This document shows positions 7,087 to 61,470 of a stretch of DNA of 64,000 nt, piece after piece. The stretch comes from an uncultured Anaerolineales bacterium (GTDB lineage Bacteria; Chloroflexota; Anaerolineae; Anaerolineales; UBA11858): NCBI GenBank assembly GCA_964613985.1, contig CAZTJD010000002.1:3664-67663 (forward strand), written 5' to 3'. The first letter of the stretch is position 1; the number at the start of each line of letters is the position of its first letter. The translations under genes and the position numbers were made by a program. The notes below the pieces were generated by a model. That model saw nothing but the letters and a program-made list of their open reading frames with translations. It had not been told where the DNA came from and did no database searches.

Positions 7087-9612
7087 ATGTTAAAGAATAT
7101 TACTCGCTTAATAATCGGACTCCTGCTATTCGTAATCATCATTATCCTTTTCACGGCGATATTTGGTCCGGTTTGGACACATAAGACGGCTGAATATTCA
7201 TTTCCGCAAATCGATGGAGAGATCAAGCTGGCTGGCTTGGATGGGCCCGTGGAAATCTATCGAGATTCGATGGGGGTACCGCACATCTATGCCATGACAC
7301 AACATGATTTATTCTTCGCCCAGGGGTATGTCCACGCCCAAGATCGTTTCTGGCAGATGGATTTCTGGCGACACCAGGGAGCTGGTCGCTTGTCAGAACT
7401 TTTGGGTAAAAATTTGCTCGAAACCGATCGATTCCTGCGCACGATTGGGTGGGAGCGTGTTGCCCAGGAGGAATTACTGCTCCTGGATGCCGAATCACAG
7501 GCGATATTAGATTCTTATGCAGAAGGCGTCAACGCTTACCTGGAAGAAAATACTGGTAAAGCGTTAGCCCTGGAATACGCTTTTCTACCGATCCTTAACC
7601 GTGGTTACCAGCCAAAACCCTGGACAGCATTAAACACCATGACCTGGGCAAAAGCTATGGCGTGGGACCTTGGCGGCAATATGGATACCGAAATCAATCG
7701 AGCGCTGTTGTTCAAAATATTGAGTCTTGAACAGGTAGAACAATTATATCCGCCTTATCCTGATGACCGTCCTGTGATCGTAAACCATCCCCAGATCACA
7801 AAAGAAATAATGCCAATATCGCACTTTAACTCCGCTTTAATAGGCTCCATCCTGCCGGGGTTGGTTGAAGTCCAGGAAAAATTTTCTGGCATCGATATTA
7901 TAGCGGGGGGCAGCTCGGACGGGATCGGCTCCAATAGTTGGGTCATCTCTGGTGATTTGACAGATACTGGTATGCCGTACCTTGCCAACGATCCCCACCT
8001 TGGAGCTCAAATCCCTTCGATCTGGTATGAGGTGGGATTACACTGCATAACAAAAGGACCTGATTGCCAGGTGAATGTCACAGGGTTCTCATTTGCTGGT
8101 GCACCCGGGATCATCATTGGACATAACGATCGTATTGCCTGGGGATTCACCAATGTTGGTCCGGATGTGATGGACCTATACATTGAGAAAATCAATCCTG
8201 AGAACCCGAACCAATACGAGTTCCAAGGGAGCTGGGTGGATATGGAAATTATCACTGAAGAAATTCGGATAGCTGGTGGTGATCCCGTCCAACAAACGGT
8301 CCATCTGACTCGTCATGGTCCAATCATTACAGAGGTCTACGGGTTGGAGAATTTTGCACAAGAATCCAGCCTTGACTTACCAGAAAACTACGCAATTGCA
8401 CTCCGGTGGACCGCCCTGGAACCCTCCTGTATCTTCTGCGCAGTCTGGAAATTTGACAAGGCAAACAATTGGGAAGAATTCAGAGTCGCAGCTTCCCTGT
8501 TTGCTGTGCCCGCTCAAAACCTGGTCTTCGCAGATATTGAAGGCAATATAGGATATCAGACCCCAGGAAATATTCCCATCCGGACAGAAAGGCATGATGG
8601 CATGCTGCCGGTACCCGGTTGGACGGGAGAATACGAGTGGCTGGGTTATATCCCCTTTGAAGAACTGCCTTATACCTTCAACCCCATCGAGGGATATATT
8701 GTTACTGCAAACAATGCGGTGGTCGGGACTGAATACCCATACAGCATTTCTCGGCAATGGTCTTACGGTCAACGTGCCCAGGCAATCGTGGACATGGTGG
8801 AAAACACTCCTGGTCCTATCACCATCGACACCATCAAGGAAATGCAAGGGGATAATAGGATCCTGATTGCTGAAGACCTGCTTCCAGTGCTGATGAATAT
8901 CTCATTGGATGAAGAAACCCTGCAGGATGCTCGCAGCATCTTCACCGGATGGGACCACCAGATGGATATCGACTCTGCCCCAGGCACCTTGTTTGCTGTA
9001 TTTTGGAAGCACCTGCTATCTGCCACCTTTGAGGATGACTTACCGGAATCTCAATGGCCTAGTGGTGGGGATGACTGGATGGAGATCGTCCGACAGTTGA
9101 TCAATGAACCAGTCTCACCCTGGTGGGACAATCAGACTACAGTTGTGGTCGAATCTAGAGATGATATCTTCCACCAAGCTTTTAAGAGTGCGGTTTCAGA
9201 AATCCAAAAACTTCAAGGTAGAGACCCCGACGGTTGGACCTGGGGTGATTTGCATACCATCACCTTTGAGAATGCCGTGATGAGTAGCTTCCCAATCATC
9301 AAAAACGTTTTCAATCGAGGTCCCTTCCCCACCGCGGGAGGTAGCGCAATAGTGAATGCGACGGGATGGAGTACACTCCAGGGTTACCAGGTAAACCATG
9401 TCCCTTCCATGAGAATGATTGTTGACCTCAGCAACCTAAGTAACTCGTTGACCATGCACACCACCGGTCAATCTGGACATCCCTACCACCCTCATTATAT
9501 CGATATGGCAGACCCCTGGCGATTGATCCAATATTTCCCCATGTATTGGGAACGCAATGAAATCGAAACAAACGAAAGTGGTCATTTATCCCTGGTTCCT
9601 TTAGCCGAATAA
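7087..9612 (+). CDS. penicillin acylase (Ntn-hydrolase) family protein with N-terminal membrane anchor
   Basis: AGGAGG RBS, an N-terminal TM helix, a GSNSWVISG nucleophile-Ser context and a size of 841 aa. Confidence 0.85.
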   Translation: MLKNITRLIIGLLLFVIIIILFTAIFGPVWTHKTAEYSFPQIDGEIKLAGLDGPVEIYRDSMGVPHIYAMTQHDLFFAQGYVHAQDRFWQMDFWRHQGAGRLSELLGKNLLETDRFLRTIGWERVAQEELLLLDAESQAILDSYAEGVNAYLEENTGKALALEYAFLPILNRGYQPKPWTALNTMTWAKAMAWDLGGNMDTEINRALLFKILSLEQVEQLYPPYPDDRPVIVNHPQITKEIMPISHFNSALIGSILPGLVEVQEKFSGIDIIAGGSSDGIGSNSWVISGDLTDTGMPYLANDPHLGAQIPSIWYEVGLHCITKGPDCQVNVTGFSFAGAPGIIIGHNDRIAWGFTNVGPDVMDLYIEKINPENPNQYEFQGSWVDMEIITEEIRIAGGDPVQQTVHLTRHGPIITEVYGLENFAQESSLDLPENYAIALRWTALEPSCIFCAVWKFDKANNWEEFRVAASLFAVPAQNLVFADIEGNIGYQTPGNIPIRTERHDGMLPVPGWTGEYEWLGYIPFEELPYTFNPIEGYIVTANNAVVGTEYPYSISRQWSYGQRAQAIVDMVENTPGPITIDTIKEMQGDNRILIAEDLLPVLMNISLDEETLQDARSIFTGWDHQMDIDSAPGTLFAVFWKHLLSATFEDDLPESQWPSGGDDWMEIVRQLINEPVSPWWDNQTTVVVESRDDIFHQAFKSAVSEIQKLQGRDPDGWTWGDLHTITFENAVMSSFPIIKNVFNRGPFPTAGGSAIVNATGWSTLQGYQVNHVPSMRMIVDLSNLSNSLTMHTTGQSGHPYHPHYIDMADPWRLIQYFPMYWERNEIETNESGHLSLVPLAE

Positions 9613-31542: not shown

Positions 31543-34500
31543 CTATTGAAACGTAATCGGTTCGATACGGACGTTATCCGTGCCAACCAGTTCCGCGATC
31601 TGGGCGATTAGGTCTTTGCAGATGCCGGTGGTTAGGTTGGGAAATTCAAGCAGGTGCCCTTTACCATGTTCGAAGATCTGAAAGGCGAAGCGGTCCACCC
31701 CTGGCCGGCAAATCAGCATCCCAAAAATTCGACGAAGAAGCAACTTATCCCTGGTCTTGTCATGACGGGGTCGCAGGATAATTGTGATCATCTGGATATC
31801 TTCAGAACCCCCAGGCCGCATCGGTGGTAGGATCGGCTTGAGTACCTTTTCTGAAATTTCCACTGGTGCCAGGGGTAGGGATTGATCCTCCTCTTCAACC
31901 TCTTCCGCTCTAATAGGAGAAGATACGGCGGAAGGAATAGTCTCCTTAATCATTGGATCACTTTCTGAAATATTTTCCTGGTCGAGTCCTTCAGCTTCGG
32001 GAGATTCATCATCTACGATTGCCATGGGTTGAGACTCTGTTCCTTGCGGATTACGAATAGATTCAGATCTACTCTCCAAGACTGTTGGTTCCTGGGTCGT
32101 GGCTTTATCATCCCAACCGAAGGGGGATTCTTCAGGCGGTGGAGGAATGAGTTTATTTTCCAAATCTGTGACGAAACCTACCAGCAGATCATCCTCCATC
32201 AGGGAGTCAGGTTCCAAAGCATGATCGGGCTTGGCGACTCCAGGTGAGGGTGCTGGCTTAGAAACGCTTGGCTTTAGCGGTCGCTGAGATGGAACAGGTT
32301 TTCGGGTTCCGAAAGTTTCCAACGGGGTTATCTGGTCGAATTCTGTGGTGATACGATCGACAAGCACTTTCGGTTCAGCCCCACGGTTATCGACCTTGCC
32401 ATCCACCATAATAATATTGTCCCATTGGATAAGCTGCTGGTATTTGGCATAGGTTCGGGGGAAGATAACCAGGTCAATCTCTCCCTGGATATCTTCGATA
32501 GTCGCAAAGGCCATGGCATCACCCCTCTTGGTAGTATGCGATCGAATACGGGTGATCAGACCAGCAACTCGTACGAGTTGTCTATCTTCTACTTCATCTA
32601 ATTCACTAGCGGAATGAGTAATATTCTTACGGATCACCTCCATCACTGGACTGAGCGGATGATCGGAGACATAAAGTCCTATGAGATCGCGTTCCCAATT
32701 GAGCTGCTCGCGGCGGGTGACATCCACACTCGTCGCTTGCAACACGATCTTCTCAACCAAGCCCATCTTTGAGCTAAAAAAAGACATCTGTCCTGTGTCC
32801 GCAGCTTTAAAGTGTGAAGCACTAATGGACATAATCCTGTCCAGGGCATCTAACAAGGCAGTGCGGTGCCCAAAGGCAGTAAATGCACCTACCTTTACCA
32901 GGCACTCCAGGGCTCTCTTTCCAACTTTACGCAGGTCTACCCGGCGTACAAAATCATTCAAACCTTGAAAAGGTCCTTCCTCTCGCCCTTCAAGGATATA
33001 GTCCACCGGTCCATGCCCAACATTCTTAACCGCTCCCAAGCCGAAACGGATCGATGAAGTACCGTCTTCATGGTCTTCTATGGTGAAATCCCAACCACTT
33101 TTATTAATATCTGGCGGTAGCACTTCAATTCCCATTCGGTGGCAGTCAGCGACATAAAGAGCAACCTTTTCTGTGTTATTCTGCTCGACTGCCAGCAAGG
33201 CGGTCATATATTCCACCGCATAATGGGTTTTCAGATAAGCAGTCTGGACCGCAATGACGCCATAATCCGCAGCATGTCCCTTGGGGAACCCGTATCGAGC
33301 AAAAGCTTCCCACTGATTAAAGATATCGTCAGCGATCTCGGCTGAAACACCATTTTGAACAGCACCACTTACAAAACGATCCCTTTGTTTGAGCAGTTCT
33401 TGTTCTTTCTTTTTCGCTACGGTCTTACGCAGGAAATCAGCTTCCGAAGCAGTGTAATTTGCCAGGTCCATGGCAGTATACATGATTTGTTCCTGGTAGA
33501 CCGTGATACCATATGTCTCTTCCAGGATCGGTTCTAATTTTGGATCCAGGTATTCGATTTCTTGCTCACCATGCATCCGAGCAATATAATCGGGGATGAA
33601 ATCCATTGGCCCAGGACGAAAAAGTGCAACCATGGCAATCACGTGGTCAAGATTCTGTGGCTTCATCTCCATCAAATAACGCCGCATTCCTGACCCTTCT
33701 ACCTGGAAAACACCGGCTGTCTCCCCACGACCTAAAAGTTCGAAAGTTTCAGGATCGTCACGGGGGATATTATCTAGGTTAAATTCCACCCCGTGTCGTT
33801 CGCAGATCAAATCACAGGCACGAGCCATGACCGTTAAAGTGGATAGTCCGAGAAAATCGACTTTGAGTAAACCCTGCTCATCGATAACAGACATGGCAAA
33901 CTGGGTTACTGTCTTAATTGGTGAATCCTGGGCAGAACCCGTTGGACGATGCAGAGGCAGGTACTCAATTATTGGCTTATCAGTAACTACCACACCGGCA
34001 GCATGGGTACCAGCATTACGAACCACCCCCTCCATACCCTTGGCTGTATCGATCAATTCACTGATATACGGGGCTGAGTTATAAGCCATCTTAAATTCGG
34101 GCACGGTTTCTAGGGCGTCCCCAATGGTGACTGGCTTCCCAGGGATATTGGGGATCAGCTTGGCAACCCGATCCACCTCAGGAAGGGGCACATCCTGCAC
34201 CCTGCCCACATCGCGTATCGCCGCCCTTGCTTTCATGGTGCCAAATGTTATGATCTGGGCAACTTTGTCGTCGCCATATTTCATGGCGCAGTATTCCATC
34301 ATCTCTGCTCGGCGGTCATCTCTGAAGTCCAGATCAATGTCAGGCATGGAAACGCGGCCGGGATTAAGAAAACGCTCAAAAATCAGGCCGTGTTCGATGG
34401 GATCAACCAGGGTTATATAAAGTGAATAGGCAACGATAGACCCTGCTGCAGAACCACGAGCGTTGTACCAAATTCCATGCTTCCGGGCATAAACGCATAA

Positions 34501-35529
34501 ATCCCACACGATCAAGAAATAAGCGTCAAATCCCATCTTGTTGATGATGTCTAATTCGTATTCCAGTCTCTGGCGAATGACAGGGTCTTGTACGCGATCA
34601 CCATAGCGACTGACCAAGCCATCTTCACATTGCTTGCGAAGGTAGTTCGCAGCGTCAAAACCCTCGGGGACAGGGAAATCGGGCAGATGGTAACCCTTGA
34701 AGTCCAGGTCAATATTACATCGTTCTGCAATCCACAATGTATTGCTGATGGCTTCCGGCACATCCGAGAAGATGTCTGCCATCTCCTGTGCTGTCCGAAG
34801 ATAATATGTTGCGCTTGACATCTTCATCCGATTCGGGTCACTCAATAAAGACCCGGTCTGTACTGCCAGTAAGATGTCTTGCAATTTTGCATCCTCTGCT
34901 TGTATATAATGAACGTCATTGGTTGCTACATACCTGGCCTGGTAGTGGGGACCAAACTCCAATAAGACTTTATTGATATTTAATAGCTCGGGGATGTCAT
35001 GCTCTTGCAGTTCAAGAAAGAAATTATCTGGTCCAAACACATCGTAATACCAATCCAGTTTCTTTCTCGCCTCGGCAATCTGTCCTCGTTCAATGGCACG
35101 AGGAATTTCCGCAGACATGCATCCGGATGTGGCAATCAATCCCTCTGAATGGGTAGCCAGGAACTCATGATCAATTCGGGGGTAATAGTAAAAGCCCTCC
35201 AGCTGGGCTGCTGAAGCAATCTTGAGCAAATTTTGGTAGCCTGTCTGGTTTTCCGCCAACAGCAAGAGATGGCTTGATTTCTTATCCAAGCGGGCGTCAC
35301 GGTTTTGCATCCGCCGGGCGGCCAGATAAGCCTCAACACCAATGATCGGTTTGACCCCTCTTCTTTTTGCTGCATTGTAGAAATCGATCACACCAAACAT
35401 CGTGCCATGATCGGTGATGGCAAGGGCAGGCATCTCTAGTTCAGCAGCGCGAGCAACTAATTTTTGGATATTGCTGAAGCCATCTAAAAGAGAATATTCG
35501 GTATGAACGTGGAGATGGGCAAATGACAT
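31543..35529 (-). CDS. dnaE: DNA polymerase III alpha subunit with long C-terminal extension
   Basis: PHP domain MSFAHLHVHTEYSLLDG, palm/fingers motifs and an OB fold. These are followed by about 170 aa of P/E/S-rich linker and a roughly 95-aa terminal domain. Total length is 1328 aa. Confidence 0.95.
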   Translation of the reverse strand: MSFAHLHVHTEYSLLDGFSNIQKLVARAAELEMPALAITDHGTMFGVIDFYNAAKRRGVKPIIGVEAYLAARRMQNRDARLDKKSSHLLLLAENQTGYQNLLKIASAAQLEGFYYYPRIDHEFLATHSEGLIATSGCMSAEIPRAIERGQIAEARKKLDWYYDVFGPDNFFLELQEHDIPELLNINKVLLEFGPHYQARYVATNDVHYIQAEDAKLQDILLAVQTGSLLSDPNRMKMSSATYYLRTAQEMADIFSDVPEAISNTLWIAERCNIDLDFKGYHLPDFPVPEGFDAANYLRKQCEDGLVSRYGDRVQDPVIRQRLEYELDIINKMGFDAYFLIVWDLCVYARKHGIWYNARGSAAGSIVAYSLYITLVDPIEHGLIFERFLNPGRVSMPDIDLDFRDDRRAEMMEYCAMKYGDDKVAQIITFGTMKARAAIRDVGRVQDVPLPEVDRVAKLIPNIPGKPVTIGDALETVPEFKMAYNSAPYISELIDTAKGMEGVVRNAGTHAAGVVVTDKPIIEYLPLHRPTGSAQDSPIKTVTQFAMSVIDEQGLLKVDFLGLSTLTVMARACDLICERHGVEFNLDNIPRDDPETFELLGRGETAGVFQVEGSGMRRYLMEMKPQNLDHVIAMVALFRPGPMDFIPDYIARMHGEQEIEYLDPKLEPILEETYGITVYQEQIMYTAMDLANYTASEADFLRKTVAKKKEQELLKQRDRFVSGAVQNGVSAEIADDIFNQWEAFARYGFPKGHAADYGVIAVQTAYLKTHYAVEYMTALLAVEQNNTEKVALYVADCHRMGIEVLPPDINKSGWDFTIEDHEDGTSSIRFGLGAVKNVGHGPVDYILEGREEGPFQGLNDFVRRVDLRKVGKRALECLVKVGAFTAFGHRTALLDALDRIMSISASHFKAADTGQMSFFSSKMGLVEKIVLQATSVDVTRREQLNWERDLIGLYVSDHPLSPVMEVIRKNITHSASELDEVEDRQLVRVAGLITRIRSHTTKRGDAMAFATIEDIQGEIDLVIFPRTYAKYQQLIQWDNIIMVDGKVDNRGAEPKVLVDRITTEFDQITPLETFGTRKPVPSQRPLKPSVSKPAPSPGVAKPDHALEPDSLMEDDLLVGFVTDLENKLIPPPPEESPFGWDDKATTQEPTVLESRSESIRNPQGTESQPMAIVDDESPEAEGLDQENISESDPMIKETIPSAVSSPIRAEEVEEEDQSLPLAPVEISEKVLKPILPPMRPGGSEDIQMITIILRPRHDKTRDKLLLRRIFGMLICRPGVDRFAFQIFEHGKGHLLEFPNLTTGICKDLIAQIAELVGTDNVRIEPITFQ

Positions 35530-52254: not shown

Positions 52255-53028
52255 GTGGATAGAAAAGCATATGCAACCCAGATTTGGCCTTTCCGGGTAT
52301 CTTTTGGAAAAGATATGCCCGGAACCATGGAGAAAATTGCCCAAATCGGATTTTCCGGTGTGGAACTGTGCCGTTGGTTCGACTGGACAGATTTATTTGA
52401 TAAATGGACTGCTGAAGAGATCCTTGACAATAGCAAACGGGTGGGATTAGAGATCATCAGCGCTCATATTCCCTATTACATGATCCTGAAGGACAGGCTA
52501 GATGAACTAACCGATTTTTGCCAAATTATGGGGATGAATTTCGCCGTAGTTGCATCGCTGCCACATGATTCATACGCATCAAAATTTACACTGGAAGAAG
52601 TCGCAGCTACATTCAATAAGGCTTCCTCGATCTTAAATCCCAGAGGAATTCGTATCGGATACCACTGTCACGGCGGTGATTTTATAACGATTGAGGGGGC
52701 AATTCCTTGGGAAATCATCTTTGACAACACCAACCCGGATATTGTCATGCAGCTGGATATTGGCAATACTCTTCATGGAAATGCAGATCCAATTTTTTAT
52801 CTACAAAAATACCCGGGGAGGGCAACACTAGTGCACTTGAAAGAGTATCACCCGCAGACACCCCCTGCTGCACTTGGGGATGGCATAATCGATTGGTCGA
52901 AAGTGCTCACCCTTTGTGAGGATCTCCATCAGCCAGCCTGGTACATTATCGAACAGGAAGAAGAAGAATACGATCCCTGGTATTGCGCTGAACGGAGTCT
53001 TGAATACCTACGGTCAATAGGCTGGTAA
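52255..53028 (+). CDS. sugar phosphate isomerase/epimerase (xylose isomerase-like TIM barrel)
   Basis: GFSGVELC...GIRIGYHCHG...VHLKE pattern. GGAGG RBS and a GTG start. Confidence 0.7.
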   Translation: MDRKAYATQIWPFRVSFGKDMPGTMEKIAQIGFSGVELCRWFDWTDLFDKWTAEEILDNSKRVGLEIISAHIPYYMILKDRLDELTDFCQIMGMNFAVVASLPHDSYASKFTLEEVAATFNKASSILNPRGIRIGYHCHGGDFITIEGAIPWEIIFDNTNPDIVMQLDIGNTLHGNADPIFYLQKYPGRATLVHLKEYHPQTPPAALGDGIIDWSKVLTLCEDLHQPAWYIIEQEEEEYDPWYCAERSLEYLRSIGW

Positions 53029-53075
53029 TTTTCCTTAAAAAATTACCTGTGGGGAGGAAAATAGGGGCAATGTGG

Positions 53076-53249
53076 TCATCCAGAAAACAACTGACAAGCA
53101 TCTTCAACACATTCTAATGAACCGACAATCGTAATGTGGTCACCAAGACCCAATTTTGTTTCCCCTTTAGGAACCATTAGCTGCTCATCCTTACGTAAAA
53201 CTGCTATCATCAAATCCCCAGGAAGGTCCAAAACATTCTTTTCAGAAAT
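53076..53249 (-). pseudogene. orphan TrkA-C (RCK C-terminal) domain fragment
   Basis: The minus-strand frame reads ISEKNVLDLPGDLMIAVLRKDEQLMVPKGETKLGLGDHITIVGSLECVEDACQLFSG*. TAA and TAG codons lie directly upstream and there is no N-terminal part. Confidence 0.55.
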
Positions 53250-53312
53250 CTATTAATTCGGATGTTTTTTTATCCTGGTCGATATTATCTTTTCATTTTT
53301 AATTGGATTAAC

Positions 53313-53665
53313 TTATCCATGTGTATTAAATAGATATATTAGTAGTCATAGTAGGTATTGGGGATATGTGGATTGATGAACTAGAATGAGCTAATGCTCC
53401 TAATTATGGGAGGACGCAGAAATTTTGCCTCATATGTGGGGGTTAGAGATACTTTGTTTATCCACACTCAAACATGGGATAAAGTTTTATTATTTTTCTG
53501 CCTAATCCACAAAGAAAGCATATTTTGGATATTTGGTGGATGAAAACTTACCCCTCCTATATATGGGGGTTGTGCTGGAAAATTTCATTGAACAAAATGG
53601 ACAAGTTTTCCCCAATTAATCTTAGTTATCCACAGTTTTTTGCTAGTTATCCACATATTTTTCAA
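53313..53665 (+). promoter_or_regulatory. DnaA-box cluster in an AT-rich intergenic region (candidate oriC or DnaA-titration/regulatory site)
   Basis: Perfect TTATCCACA at 53458-53466, 53636-53644 and 53657-53665. One 1-mismatch box is at 53503-53511. Three 2-mismatch boxes are at 53313-53321, 53367-53375 (rc) and 53535-53543 (rc). Confidence 0.6.
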
Positions 53666-53811
53666 TAAAAGAAGGGTGTTTTTTCTTCTAGCTACCTACA
53701 ATTAACGAAAGAGTAGGGGGATGTTGCAAATGGAATTTAACCATTTACAGGAGAAAGGTAAGTAAGTATAATGTAATTAGATAAATATCTAAATTTGATT
53801 ATTACCTAATT

Positions 53812-54873
53812 ATGAAGCATCAAGAAATACTTTGGGATTGGGGAACTGCGTATGATCTTTTTTGCAGCCTGCGTGTTTTACACGAACCAGGGCATTATGG
53901 TCTGCGACCCTCCTGGGCAGCAGGTGTTCGCTCGCGGCTTCCAAACGAACATCGCAAAATATTAGAACAGGTACATAGCTTCTTGTTTGTCCCTAAAAAA
54001 TGGATTTATGGTCTACCATTGCAAGAAGAAGATACGCCAAAAGATGGGAATACGATTCTATGGTTCTTGAGTCAATTACCCCCTGAAGATCGTTTGATTC
54101 ATTTAATAGCAAGCAGCGGTTCAACAAAGGATGTTGTAAATATCTTGCAAGAAATTTCTCTTCATAGATCTTTTTCATCCAATGATCTGGATAACTTACG
54201 AGATGCTTATTCCCCCGATAAAACCAGGCCTCGCTTAAAAAGTATTACAGAAATGGCGGGGCTGGTTTCTCAAGCCGCAGAATCAGGAGTTAATTATCTA
54301 AATGCCTTGAGAGCATATCAAAGAGTCTTTTTTGCAGAAGAAGAAAATCGAATCAAACCAGCTCTAAAAAGGTCAATGTTAGAGGCGAAAAAACAGGCAT
54401 CACGACTATCTCTAGAAGACTTAATCGAATCATTATCGCGTGGAGTTCGAATCGGGATAGAACCTGCGATCAAACAACTGGTTTTTATCCCCTCTTATTG
54501 GATTTCTCCATTAGTTTCTTTCGACCGGGTATATGGTGATACGGCATTTTTCATTTTTGGAGGACGACCTGCGGATGTGTCCTTGGTTCCAGGAGACATG
54601 ATCCCGGAAGGTTTACTGCGATCGTTCAAAGCAATGGGAGATCCTACCCGGTTGCGGATCCTAAAGTACTTGGCACAGGAGAATATCACACCAGCAGAAA
54701 TAGCACGAAGGTTACGATTACGGGCACCTACAGTAACTCATCACCTAAATGTCCTTCGGTTGGCTGGGTTGGTGAACCTGACTCTTCTTGAAGAGGGAAA
54801 TGAGAGGCATTACACGGCTAGAAAAGAATCGATGAAAGATATACTAACCGATTTGGATTCCTTTCTGGAATAG
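53812..54873 (+). CDS. ArsR/SmtB family transcriptional regulator with large N-terminal domain
   Basis: C-terminal wHTH FKAMGDPTRLRILKYLAQENITPAEIARRLRLRAPTVTHHLNVLRLAGLV. Confidence 0.8.
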   Translation: MKHQEILWDWGTAYDLFCSLRVLHEPGHYGLRPSWAAGVRSRLPNEHRKILEQVHSFLFVPKKWIYGLPLQEEDTPKDGNTILWFLSQLPPEDRLIHLIASSGSTKDVVNILQEISLHRSFSSNDLDNLRDAYSPDKTRPRLKSITEMAGLVSQAAESGVNYLNALRAYQRVFFAEEENRIKPALKRSMLEAKKQASRLSLEDLIESLSRGVRIGIEPAIKQLVFIPSYWISPLVSFDRVYGDTAFFIFGGRPADVSLVPGDMIPEGLLRSFKAMGDPTRLRILKYLAQENITPAEIARRLRLRAPTVTHHLNVLRLAGLVNLTLLEEGNERHYTARKESMKDILTDLDSFLE

Positions 54874-54955
54874 AATTCAGACTATTAACTTGCCTTATTG
54901 AGATGTGGGTTATTTGAACTGATGTTACCTAAGTTACTCAGCGCTTCGCCAACGA

Positions 54956-55534
54956 ATGTCATTCATGATTATATCGGAACTGCGCATGTTTCGATTGAAT
55001 GCTCGCTTGTACCTGTTCAATGTTGTTGTTTCAGGCGTTTCTATGGGCGTATATAGGCTTTTATTTAATTTTTAAGCCCTTAGTTTAGGTTTTGATGAAG
55101 CAATCTTGGGTCGTCTGGTAATGACAAGCAGTTTAACTTCCTTGTTGGTGGCTCTACCGGTGGGATACTTGGCTGACATTTTGGGACGCAAACGATCTCT
55201 GATGATTCTGGGATTTTCACCTTGGTTTTGGTTAAGCGCTGGTGCTTATTATGTCCGGTTAACGTTAATGAACTTAAGAAACCCCGTATACCAGACCTTT
55301 GTCATAGAAAATGCGGACCCTGAAGCCCGCGCTACGGTTGCCAGCCTGACCAGTATTGCCTGGAGTTTTGGGTGGGCTTTCAATCCAACGATTAGTGGTG
55401 AATTTCAGATTGCGAATGGATTTGGTCCACCTTTTCTCGGCATAATTATCTTATACAGCTTTGCTAATTTCCTTTACTGGATTTTCTTTTGGGGACGAAA
55501 GCCGAAGGGGGAAATAGCGTCTGTTACCAAGTAA
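54956..55534 (+). pseudogene. decayed MFS transporter paralog (premature TAA plus large internal deletion)
   Basis: Reads MSFMIISELRMFRLNARLYLFNVVVSGVSMGVYRLLFNF*ALSLGFDEAILGRLV..., collinear with the N-terminus of the downstream MFS gene. It then jumps directly to its C-terminal segment (LGFSPWFWLSAGAYYVRLTLMNLRNPVYQTF...). The stop is at 55073-55075. Confidence 0.75.
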
Positions 55535-55575
55535 AGAATATTGGCTGAAAATATTCTCGAGGAACTCAAGAATAA

Positions 55576-60660: not shown

Positions 60661-61470
60661 TTACACAACAGCTGGAATATCGCGATGGATGTACAGCCAA
60701 TAACTTGCCACCAGGGAAAACAGGGTGATTGATATATTGAGTAGTATTAATGGGAGATCATATCCGACATGCTGAACAATGTAGGTTGGGTTCAGGTGCT
60801 TAAAGGGCGTAATGAACTCCAACACGGAAACGCCTTCCATTTCGCTGAATGCACTGAGCACATACATTCCAAAGCCTAAGCCAAGGGAATAAGGCGTCAC
60901 GCTGCGTACACGTTTAACCAACAAGGAGATGACCAGCCCCACACTCAAGAAAAACAATTGAAAAATCACGATGCTGGACAGCAGTAAGAACAAGGTGCGT
61001 GTTTCGAAATCACGGCCGTTGCGAAAAGCCAGGATGGCTGTAAAGCCACTTATCCACACAACCAGATTGCTGATTGTGAGGCTGGTGAATGCTGCCAGCA
61101 GTTTGCTGTTTAAAATTTGCCCGCGGCTGACCGGTTTACTTATTAGGAAGTCCGCCGTTAGTTCGCTTTCTTCAATTGAGACCAGTCCAAAACCATAGTT
61201 ACCAGCCTGGATTGCCAGACAAACCTGGGCGAAGAGAAAGATGAAACTATAAAATCCCAGTACGGTAGATAAATCTACTCCGTTCATGCCGAAAGCAGAT
61301 AGGAGTTCGGGTGGAAATCTGGCCATCATTTCATTTGCCAGGGCAGCTTCATCAGCAAAAGTTGGAAAGATGGAAAAGAAAACAAGGTTAATCGCTGCCA
61401 GTGCAATCGACCAGGCGATGACTGATTTCAGACGAATGCGGAATTCGTGTCTGTAGATATTTGTTTTCAT
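60661..61470 (-). CDS. ABC-2 family transporter permease
   Basis: A paralogous polytopic protein downstream of the ATPase. Confidence 0.7.
   Translation of the reverse strand: MKTNIYRHEFRIRLKSVIAWSIALAAINLVFFSIFPTFADEAALANEMMARFPPELLSAFGMNGVDLSTVLGFYSFIFLFAQVCLAIQAGNYGFGLVSIEESELTADFLISKPVSRGQILNSKLLAAFTSLTISNLVVWISGFTAILAFRNGRDFETRTLFLLLSSIVIFQLFFLSVGLVISLLVKRVRSVTPYSLGLGFGMYVLSAFSEMEGVSVLEFITPFKHLNPTYIVQHVGYDLPLILLNISITLFSLVASYWLYIHRDIPAVV

Follow-up and report, generated by a model that had tools for sequence, protein, structure and literature searches.

The closest described counterpart of the element reported here is the 'basal unwinding system' (BUS) of bacterial replication origins, which leads to the opening of adjoining AT-rich DNA (PMC8287927; PMC6669920). 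As a search rule, a BUS has been defined by a DnaA box with no more than 2 mismatches and an optional second box with no more than 4, which a spacer of up to 16 bp with a GC part of about 4 bp separates from at least three NAN DnaA-trios of consensus 3'-GAT-5' (PMC8287927); the spacer has also been described as a 'GC-rich region (4 bp on average)' (PMC8287927). We analyzed a 64-kb stretch of contig CAZTJD010000002.1 from an uncultured Anaerolineales bacterium (from here on, the window), in which an initial annotation had pointed to a cluster of DnaA boxes as a candidate replication origin located away from dnaA and dnaN. Our results favour that proposal, based on the module found at 53280-53375 and on its conservation amid differing flanking genes. 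Most likely, positions 53262-53655 are the DnaA-dependent chromosomal origin (oriC) of this bacterium, an origin that is not linked to dnaA. The architecture of the element, its orientation and spacing, its rarity by chance, and its conservation irrespective of the neighbouring genes are the observations on which this reading is built.

In the window, a complete origin-unwinding module occupies 53340-53375 and agrees with the published BUS rule in its boxes, its trios, and the length of its spacer, as five DnaA-trio triplets (TAGTAGTCATAGTAG) are followed by a 4-bp spacer and by two tandem boxes in reverse orientation. Four of the five trios match the 3'-GAT-5' consensus, and the array does not fall below the BUS minimum of at least three NAN triplets. 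The two boxes, TGGGGATAT and TGTGGATTG, each carry 2 mismatches to TGTGGATAA and lie 4 bp and 12 bp from the trios, respectively, and the order read on the trio strand (5'-(TAG)n, spacer, TGTGGATAA-type boxes-3') is the orientation of the published BUS table. When a strict version of the module was used as a pattern (at least four of five [T/A]A[G/A] triplets, a spacer of 0-7 bp, and two tandem 9-mers with at most 2 mismatches to TGTGGATAA), a single match was obtained in the 64 kb, at 53340-53375, and none in 200 dinucleotide-preserving shuffles. The initial annotation had also described a very AT-rich tract on the left side of the region (53250-53345), and this was borne out, as the 60 bp beyond the trios (53280-53339) are 80% AT compared to 55% window-wide. 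In most relatives the tract beyond the trios is 72-83% AT, while the sequence itself is not conserved; that AT-richness is kept while the sequence drifts is what would be expected for an unwinding element.

Whether the boxes persist in related genomes, a question on which the initial annotation had staked its proposal, was looked at, and the element was found to be kept at fixed spacing. Related loci came from a search with the ArsR-type protein encoded downstream of the element, which yielded L045 (70% identity) and L047 (61%), from an exchanger homologue (P0247, in a search seeded with the Na+/H+ exchanger of locus L051), which led to L070-72, and from a pattern scan of metagenome contigs, in which part of the element (CCCCAATTAA-N4-8-TTNTCCACAGTTTT) served as query and which added 16 more loci (L052-L067). 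For L052-L067, conservation of the part matching the pattern follows from the way in which they were found; the same part is also identical in L045, L047, and L071, which were found through proteins. The architecture recurs in these three loci, in the 16 loci of the pattern scan, and partly in L051, and the base-level spacing of the approximately 320-bp element, from the trios to the right-hand box pair, is kept in more than 15 metagenomic loci of Anaerolineales type. The distance from the trios to CCCCAATTAA is 268-272 bp in nearly all strict-pattern loci and 281 bp in L058, the three right-hand boxes are spaced 20 and 21 bp apart across loci, and the TTTTCCCCA box precedes the next box by 20 bp in all of them. 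The block around the TTTTCCCCA box (53606-53619) is identical in L045, L047, and L071, that is, in loci obtained without the search pattern. Both L045 and L047 carry the same pair of boxes 21 bp apart; in L045 the pair is preceded by a third box, about 169 bp upstream, and in L047 a reverse box in the trio-side block is found instead.

Aligned with each other, the loci share five conserved blocks: the trio array with the reverse box pair (TAGTAGTCnTAGTAGG..cTG[G/T]GGATA[T/A]GTGGAtAA), an inverted box pair (TTATCCACA...GGGGATAA), a palindrome (CCCCCATATATGGGGG), the block AGTTTTCCCCAATTAA, and two boxes (TTATCCACAGTTTT..c.AGTTATCCACA). The trio array (TAGTAGTCnTAGTAG) is among the best-conserved of the aligned blocks, with five TAG triplets in L059 and L064, and the proximal box pair of the relatives reads TGTGGATAAGTGGATAA. 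Locus by locus, nearly all exact TT[A/T]TCC[A/C]CA words fall within the element. The linked ArsR protein is only 43-70% identical in the loci that bear the element. In the loci of more distant GlgC homologues (L068 and L069) synteny is lost and the element was not found, and a scan of a genome collection with the ArsR protein returned distant matches to its helix-turn-helix domain in unrelated phyla and nothing closer.

In the case of the box cluster, most of what had been annotated initially could be reproduced, with some corrections. Three perfect TTATCCACA boxes are present, all on the forward strand (Table 1); their shared orientation and the position 53458 stand, and the other two, placed at 53636 and 53657, really start at 53626 and 53647, as the earlier coordinates were 10 bp too high. 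The 21-bp spacing of these two boxes and the TAGTTATCCACA repeat they share were given correctly, and so were the 1-mismatch box TAATCCACA at 53503, the 2-mismatch boxes at 53313 (forward), 53367-53375 (reverse), and 53535-53543 (reverse), and the repeated motif ATGTGGGGGTT / ATATGGGGGTT, which lies at about 53431-53445 and 53561-53571. Of the 2-mismatch sites, relatives share only the reverse one at 53367, and not that at 53313. Distal boxes thus accompany the proximal pair at 53458, 53503, 53606, 53626, and 53647, and the 53458 box forms an inverted pair with the reverse site at 53474-53482. The claim that a single near-match exists elsewhere in the window did not hold, as a perfect box at 61050 and 17 more 1-mismatch boxes were found outside the cluster. 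Perfect TTATCCACA boxes number 4 in the 64 kb compared to 0.59 expected, a count reached in none of 100 shuffles, and three of the four are confined to 200 bp. Boxes with 1 mismatch are not enriched (21 window-wide, 18.5 expected), which means that the signal is the local cluster and not the rarity of box-like 9-mers.

Two further observations concern the boxes themselves. The fourth perfect TTATCCACA (61050-61058, forward) is isolated within an ABC-2 permease gene (60661-61470, reverse strand) and is probably a chance occurrence. Furthermore, the clade uses, beside the canonical TTATCCACA, a box variant whose position 7 is C (TTATCCCCA / TTTTCCCCA, reverse TGGGGATAA), which is found in the window at 53359-53367 and 53606-53614 and throughout the relatives.

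The genes that accompany the element differ from locus to locus. Downstream, an ArsR-type regulator is encoded in L052, L054, L061, L063, L064, and L066, a LacI-type one in L053 and L057, and a kinase in L060 (Ser/Thr) and L065 (histidine); in L059 and L062 the element is followed directly by OsmC, and in L055, L056, and L058 by other genes. In L051 the trio-and-box module is inverted and about 10 kb away from the ArsR gene, and its neighbour is a Na+/H+ exchanger-TrkA gene. Divergent genes surround the element in L070-72, with ArsR-MFS-MFS-OsmC on one side and a 124-aa open reading frame (ORF), the exchanger, and more genes on the other, and in L045 all eight genes on the left point leftward and the nearest four on the right point rightward. 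Genes that diverge from the site, as in L045 and L070-72, fit with replication forks leaving the element.

The GC skew was also considered. Cumulative G-C in the window declines from about 13.5 kb onward, is lowest at 48.5 kb, and climbs from there to the end. For the flanks of 16 non-redundant loci (at most 10 kb per side), pooling gave a skew of -0.043 to the left of the element and +0.033 to its right; taken singly, 14 of the 16 right flanks are positive, and of the left flanks, for which 14 loci provide sequence, 11 are negative. Such a change from negative to positive has the sign of an origin and not of a terminus. We regard the skew, however, as weak support for an origin, given the short flanks, the confounding with gene orientation, and a local minimum about 5 kb away from the element.

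A mechanism can be proposed that is modelled on the BUS established in Bacillus subtilis. DnaA would bind the phased forward boxes at 53606, 53626, and 53647, as well as those at 53458 and 53503, and these right-side sites would raise DnaA's local concentration at the oppositely oriented proximal pair (53359-53375), which would also be bound by DnaA. From the proximal pair, an ATP-DnaA oligomer might then grow onto the TAG-repeat strand of the trios (53340-53354), stretch this strand, and open the AT tract (about 53262-53339) for loading of the helicase. DnaA binding, DNA unwinding, and the status of the element as sole chromosomal origin are inferred.

Table 1. Features of the candidate origin and its surroundings (window coordinates).
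Feature	Position	Strand	Basis or remark
TrkA_C relic of a Na+/H+ exchanger-TrkA gene, 51-aa ORF	53076-53231	-	Pfam TrkA_C, E = 2.6e-6
AT-rich tract, putative DNA unwinding element (DUE)	53262-53339		AT content
DnaA-trio array TAG TAG TCA TAG TAG (3'-GAT-5' away from the boxes)	53340-53354	+	Alignment, BUS rule
Trio-to-box spacer, 4 bp, GTAT	53355-53358		GGGC, GGCT or GGGT in relatives
Tandem reverse DnaA boxes TGGGGATAT (53359-53367) and TGTGGATTG (53367-53375)	53359-53375	-	1-nt overlap
First palindrome-like copy GCCTCATATGTGGGGG, degenerate in the window	53427-53442		Alignment, motif count
Perfect DnaA box TTATCCACA	53458-53466	+	Kept in most relatives
Reverse DnaA-box-like site ATGGGATAA	53474-53482	-	Relatives' consensus TGGGGATAA
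DnaA box TAATCCACA, 1 mismatch	53503-53511	+	Relatives' consensus TTTTCCACA, moderate conservation
C5-N6-G5 palindrome ACCCCTCCTATATATGGGGGTT	53550-53571		Relatives' consensus CCCCCATATATGGGGG
Variant DnaA box TTTTCCCCA, then AATTAA	53606-53619	+	First of the phased triple array
Perfect DnaA box inside TAGTTATCCACAGTTTT	53626-53634	+	Middle of the triple array
Perfect DnaA box inside TAGTTATCCACA	53647-53655	+	21 bp past the preceding box
Predicted ArsR-gene promoter and operator, separate from the candidate origin	53744-53809	+	Promoter scan 11/12

Boxes and trios are accompanied by a palindrome of the form C5-N6-G5 and by the CAATTAA that follows the TTTTCCCCA box, which is invariant in relatives; both are part of the conserved element. 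In nearly all loci (L047, L053-L064, L071) the best-conserved copy of the palindrome is placed at a constant offset of -54 from CCCCAATTAA, and up to three copies occur per element, with second and third copies in many loci. Palindrome matches number 24 in 7.8 kb of elements and 7 in 154 kb outside, which makes them about 67-fold denser inside. Its arms are invariant, and its centre varies without strict symmetry. A reading of the palindromes as hairpins was rejected, since single-strand folds were no better than those of shuffles (z = -0.9 to +0.25) and the hairpin of the window palindrome is weak (-3.6 kcal/mol, z = -0.87). The palindrome could equally well be bound by a dimeric origin-binding protein or have a structural role. 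It is possible, if rather doubtful, that the palindromes and the CAATTAA tail are sites for a lineage-specific origin-binding protein of the Anaerolineales, such as a regulator, a helicase-loading factor, or an architectural factor. If true, this would make the element a BUS-type origin with an additional, undescribed layer of control.

To the right of the element, the ArsR-type gene (53812-54873, forward strand) encodes a 353-aa protein with a C-terminal ArsR-type helix-turn-helix domain and a weak N-terminal match to DUF5937. It is preceded by a promoter-like sequence, TTTACA-17-TATAAT (53744-53772), by the palindrome TTAGATAAATATCTAA (53777-53792), and by a degenerate second copy of the latter (53794-53809); the last DnaA box ends 89 bp ahead of the -35 hexamer. 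The palindrome, often in two copies, is found in the window (53777-53809), in L050 (9961-9984), and in L051 (9906-9935), where ArsR orthologues about 50% identical have short upstream regions that lack boxes and retain TTAGATAAATATCTAA; it is probably the operator of the ArsR-type regulator itself. A near-consensus promoter followed by this palindrome suggests that the ArsR unit has a promoter and an operator of its own, at least 89 bp past the last box. In L050 an insertion sequence of IS3 type (8332-9445; HTH_Tnp_1, rve) lies directly upstream of the ArsR-type gene, in the place where closer relatives have the origin element. Downstream of the ArsR-type gene of the window, the first of two MFS genes (54900-55575) is broken, as only a 142-aa ORF (55106-55534) and out-of-frame similarity at 54971-55354 are left; relatives, by comparison, carry both genes intact (about 425 aa each).

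On its left, the region (53029-53811) is bounded by a gene for a xylose-isomerase-like TIM-barrel protein (52255-53028, forward strand). The initial annotation was right in locating the boxes between this gene and the ArsR-type gene, but the gap is not empty, as it contains the TrkA_C relic at 53076-53231. An intact exchanger gene of 625 aa stands beside the element in L051, in L070-72, and in the P0033 locus; in the window only its last 50 or so codons are left, followed by unrelated rightward genes, which points to a deletion or rearrangement adjoining the AT-rich tract. The comparison thus indicates that the lineage of the window lost about 1.7 kb beside this tract, and the relic would lie outside the origin. 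The earlier statement that no dnaA, dnaN, parAB, or gidAB gene is adjacent was upheld when 50 ORFs of the window, nearly every one of at least 120 aa among them, were scanned against Pfam and none of these genes was found; neither a Bac_DnaA nor a DNA polymerase III beta domain was detected in the scanned ORFs or in the related loci. The only gene of the window related to replication initiation is dnaE, for the alpha subunit of DNA polymerase III (31543-35529, reverse strand), about 18 kb from the candidate origin. Together with dnaE, the window holds four tRNA genes, mutY, guanylate kinase (gmk), RNase H (rnhA), and glgC, and the setting of the element is chromosomal. The nearest named homologues of the window GlgC, with up to 77% identity, belong to metagenome-assembled genomes labelled 'Anaerolineales bacterium' and 'Chloroflexi bacterium', and the named matches to the ArsR-type protein, about 49-50% identical, come from the same groups.

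We acknowledge that several points weigh against the identification of 53262-53655 as oriC. Our view is of 64 kb of one contig, and a second and better box cluster, for instance beside dnaA, is conceivable. None of dnaA, dnaN, parAB, and gidAB was found in the 53 kb left of the element, in the 10 kb right of it, or in the related loci. The proximal boxes of the window are degenerate, with 2 mismatches each, and its spacer is GTAT instead of a GC-rich sequence. The window genes to the left of the element are head-on, the first 28 kb of the window lack the negative skew expected left of an origin, and the offset of the skew minimum and its confounding with gene orientation, mentioned above, count here as well. 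Lastly, a BUS entry derived from DoriC places the system of Anaerolinea thermophila at genome positions 420-460, although the entry is weak (Pelliciari 2021, PMC8287927), and based on it other Anaerolineae may have their origin elsewhere. The distance from dnaA and dnaN, the degenerate proximal boxes, the single contig in view, and the A. thermophila entry would all be compatible with a DnaA locus that is not an origin (titration or modulation of DnaA-ATP, in the manner of datA, DARS, or DnaA-box clusters) or with a retired second origin, the active oriC being elsewhere. We consider this unlikely, and titration of the datA/DARS type, which had been named initially as an alternative, is disfavoured, because the conserved trios and the unwinding tract are not explained by it. 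A titration locus, in fact, would need only double-strand boxes, whereas the trios, the 4-bp spacer, the box orientation, and the AT tract are the parts most conserved, in sequence or in composition, among relatives, which argues for selection on unwinding; a retired origin, on the other hand, would not be expected to stay intact through a divergence of ArsR down to 43-52% identity.

That the candidate origin serves a secondary replicon or an integrated element, and not the main chromosome, would also fit with its lack of linkage to dnaA and with the view of a single 64-kb contig, but is very improbable given the housekeeping genes carried by the same contig (dnaE, four tRNAs, mutY, guanylate kinase, RNase H, and glgC), the stability of the neighbourhood, the lack of plasmid or phage genes in the related ArsR-MFS-OsmC-GlgC loci, and the failure of plasmid, phage, and viral-contig collections to yield any match to the element. 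Slightly less probable still is that DnaA regulates transcription of ArsR-MFS-MFS-OsmC through the boxes, a possibility raised by the initial annotation as well. The boxes do lie upstream of the ArsR gene and in the same direction, both in the window and in several relatives; the last box, however, stops 89 bp short of the -35 of a strong promoter-like site that has its own operator palindrome, this palindrome is retained in L050 and L051, which lack boxes, and trios and AT tract would be left unaccounted for. As the element also occurs upstream of unrelated genes and without an adjacent ArsR gene, and as ArsR orthologues with their own promoter and operator occur without the element, the boxes do not appear to be part of ArsR regulation. 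The least probable explanation, in our opinion, is that the conserved intergenic block is a structured non-coding RNA in which the boxes are incidental. A long conserved intergenic sequence with palindromes could suggest as much, but Rfam gave no match in the region either at gathering thresholds or at E <= 1, what is conserved consists of protein-binding words (trios, and DnaA boxes in either orientation), and the palindromes are devoid of covariation, since their arms never vary.

If the element is the oriC of this bacterium, as we believe likely, it would provide a sequence-defined model of an origin for the Anaerolineales, which are abundant and mostly uncultured and in which no origin or origin control is known to have been characterised. 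A full-text literature search, in fact, found no description of an origin in Anaerolineae or Chloroflexi, and the entry for the class in the BUS table is weak. The element could anchor estimates of replication rate based on peak-to-trough ratios from metagenomes, and could help orient and close assemblies of the clade. It also adds to the evidence that the module of box pair, trios, and AT tract is ancestral across bacteria. The general picture of origin function would be unchanged, as this is a known kind of element in an understudied lineage.

When compared to known systems, the datA and DARS loci of E. coli and the DnaA-box clusters of B. subtilis resemble the present element in that DnaA boxes are clustered away from dnaA, but these loci have no trio array, no oriented pair beside an AT tract, and no DNA-opening role. 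The oriC of E. coli is similar in not adjoining dnaA. In that origin, the reverse box R1 (TGTGGATAA) stands beside the DUE and oppositely oriented boxes are found at the far end, and the convergent orientation of the two box groups of the present element recalls these two halves. Unlike in the E. coli origin, however, no clustering of GATC/SeqA sites and no 13-mer repeats were seen in the present element, which has no gidA or mioC neighbours and a far more regular trio array. A likeness extending to the module itself is seen with the incC BUS of B. subtilis oriC, where a tandem box pair, a spacer of about 4 bp, 3'-GAT-5' triplets, and an AT-rich tract are found as well (PMC8287927, PMC6669920). 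In incC (DnaA-box#6/#7), the orientation of the boxes relative to the trios is also the same, and distal boxes lie about 100-300 bp away. In contrast to B. subtilis, the present element is not located between dnaA and dnaN and is not bipartite, its third trio is usually TCN, it uses the variant boxes TTATCCCCA / TTTTCCCCA, and it has the extra C5-N6-G5 palindromes and the triple array phased at 20/21 bp. Work of Richardson (2016 and 2019) is reported to describe the incC BUS. Two other BUS entries bear on this comparison, namely those of Anaerolinea thermophila UNI-1 (DoriC ORI94030346) and Deinococcus maricopensis (DoriC ORI94010802) in the supplementary table of Pelliciari 2021. The A. thermophila entry, compared here as it stands in the table, shares the variant box TTTTCCCCA with the present element, but its box, the only one, has 2 mismatches, its spacer is 16 bp long, and its trios score low. 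The D. maricopensis entry, which the table writes 3'->5', reads 5'-...TAGTAG...GGGC TGTGGAAAC TGTGGATAA-3' (Pelliciari 2021, PMC8287927), and with its two tandem boxes, GGGC spacer, and TAG/TAA trios has a layout that is almost that of the consensus of the relatives described here.

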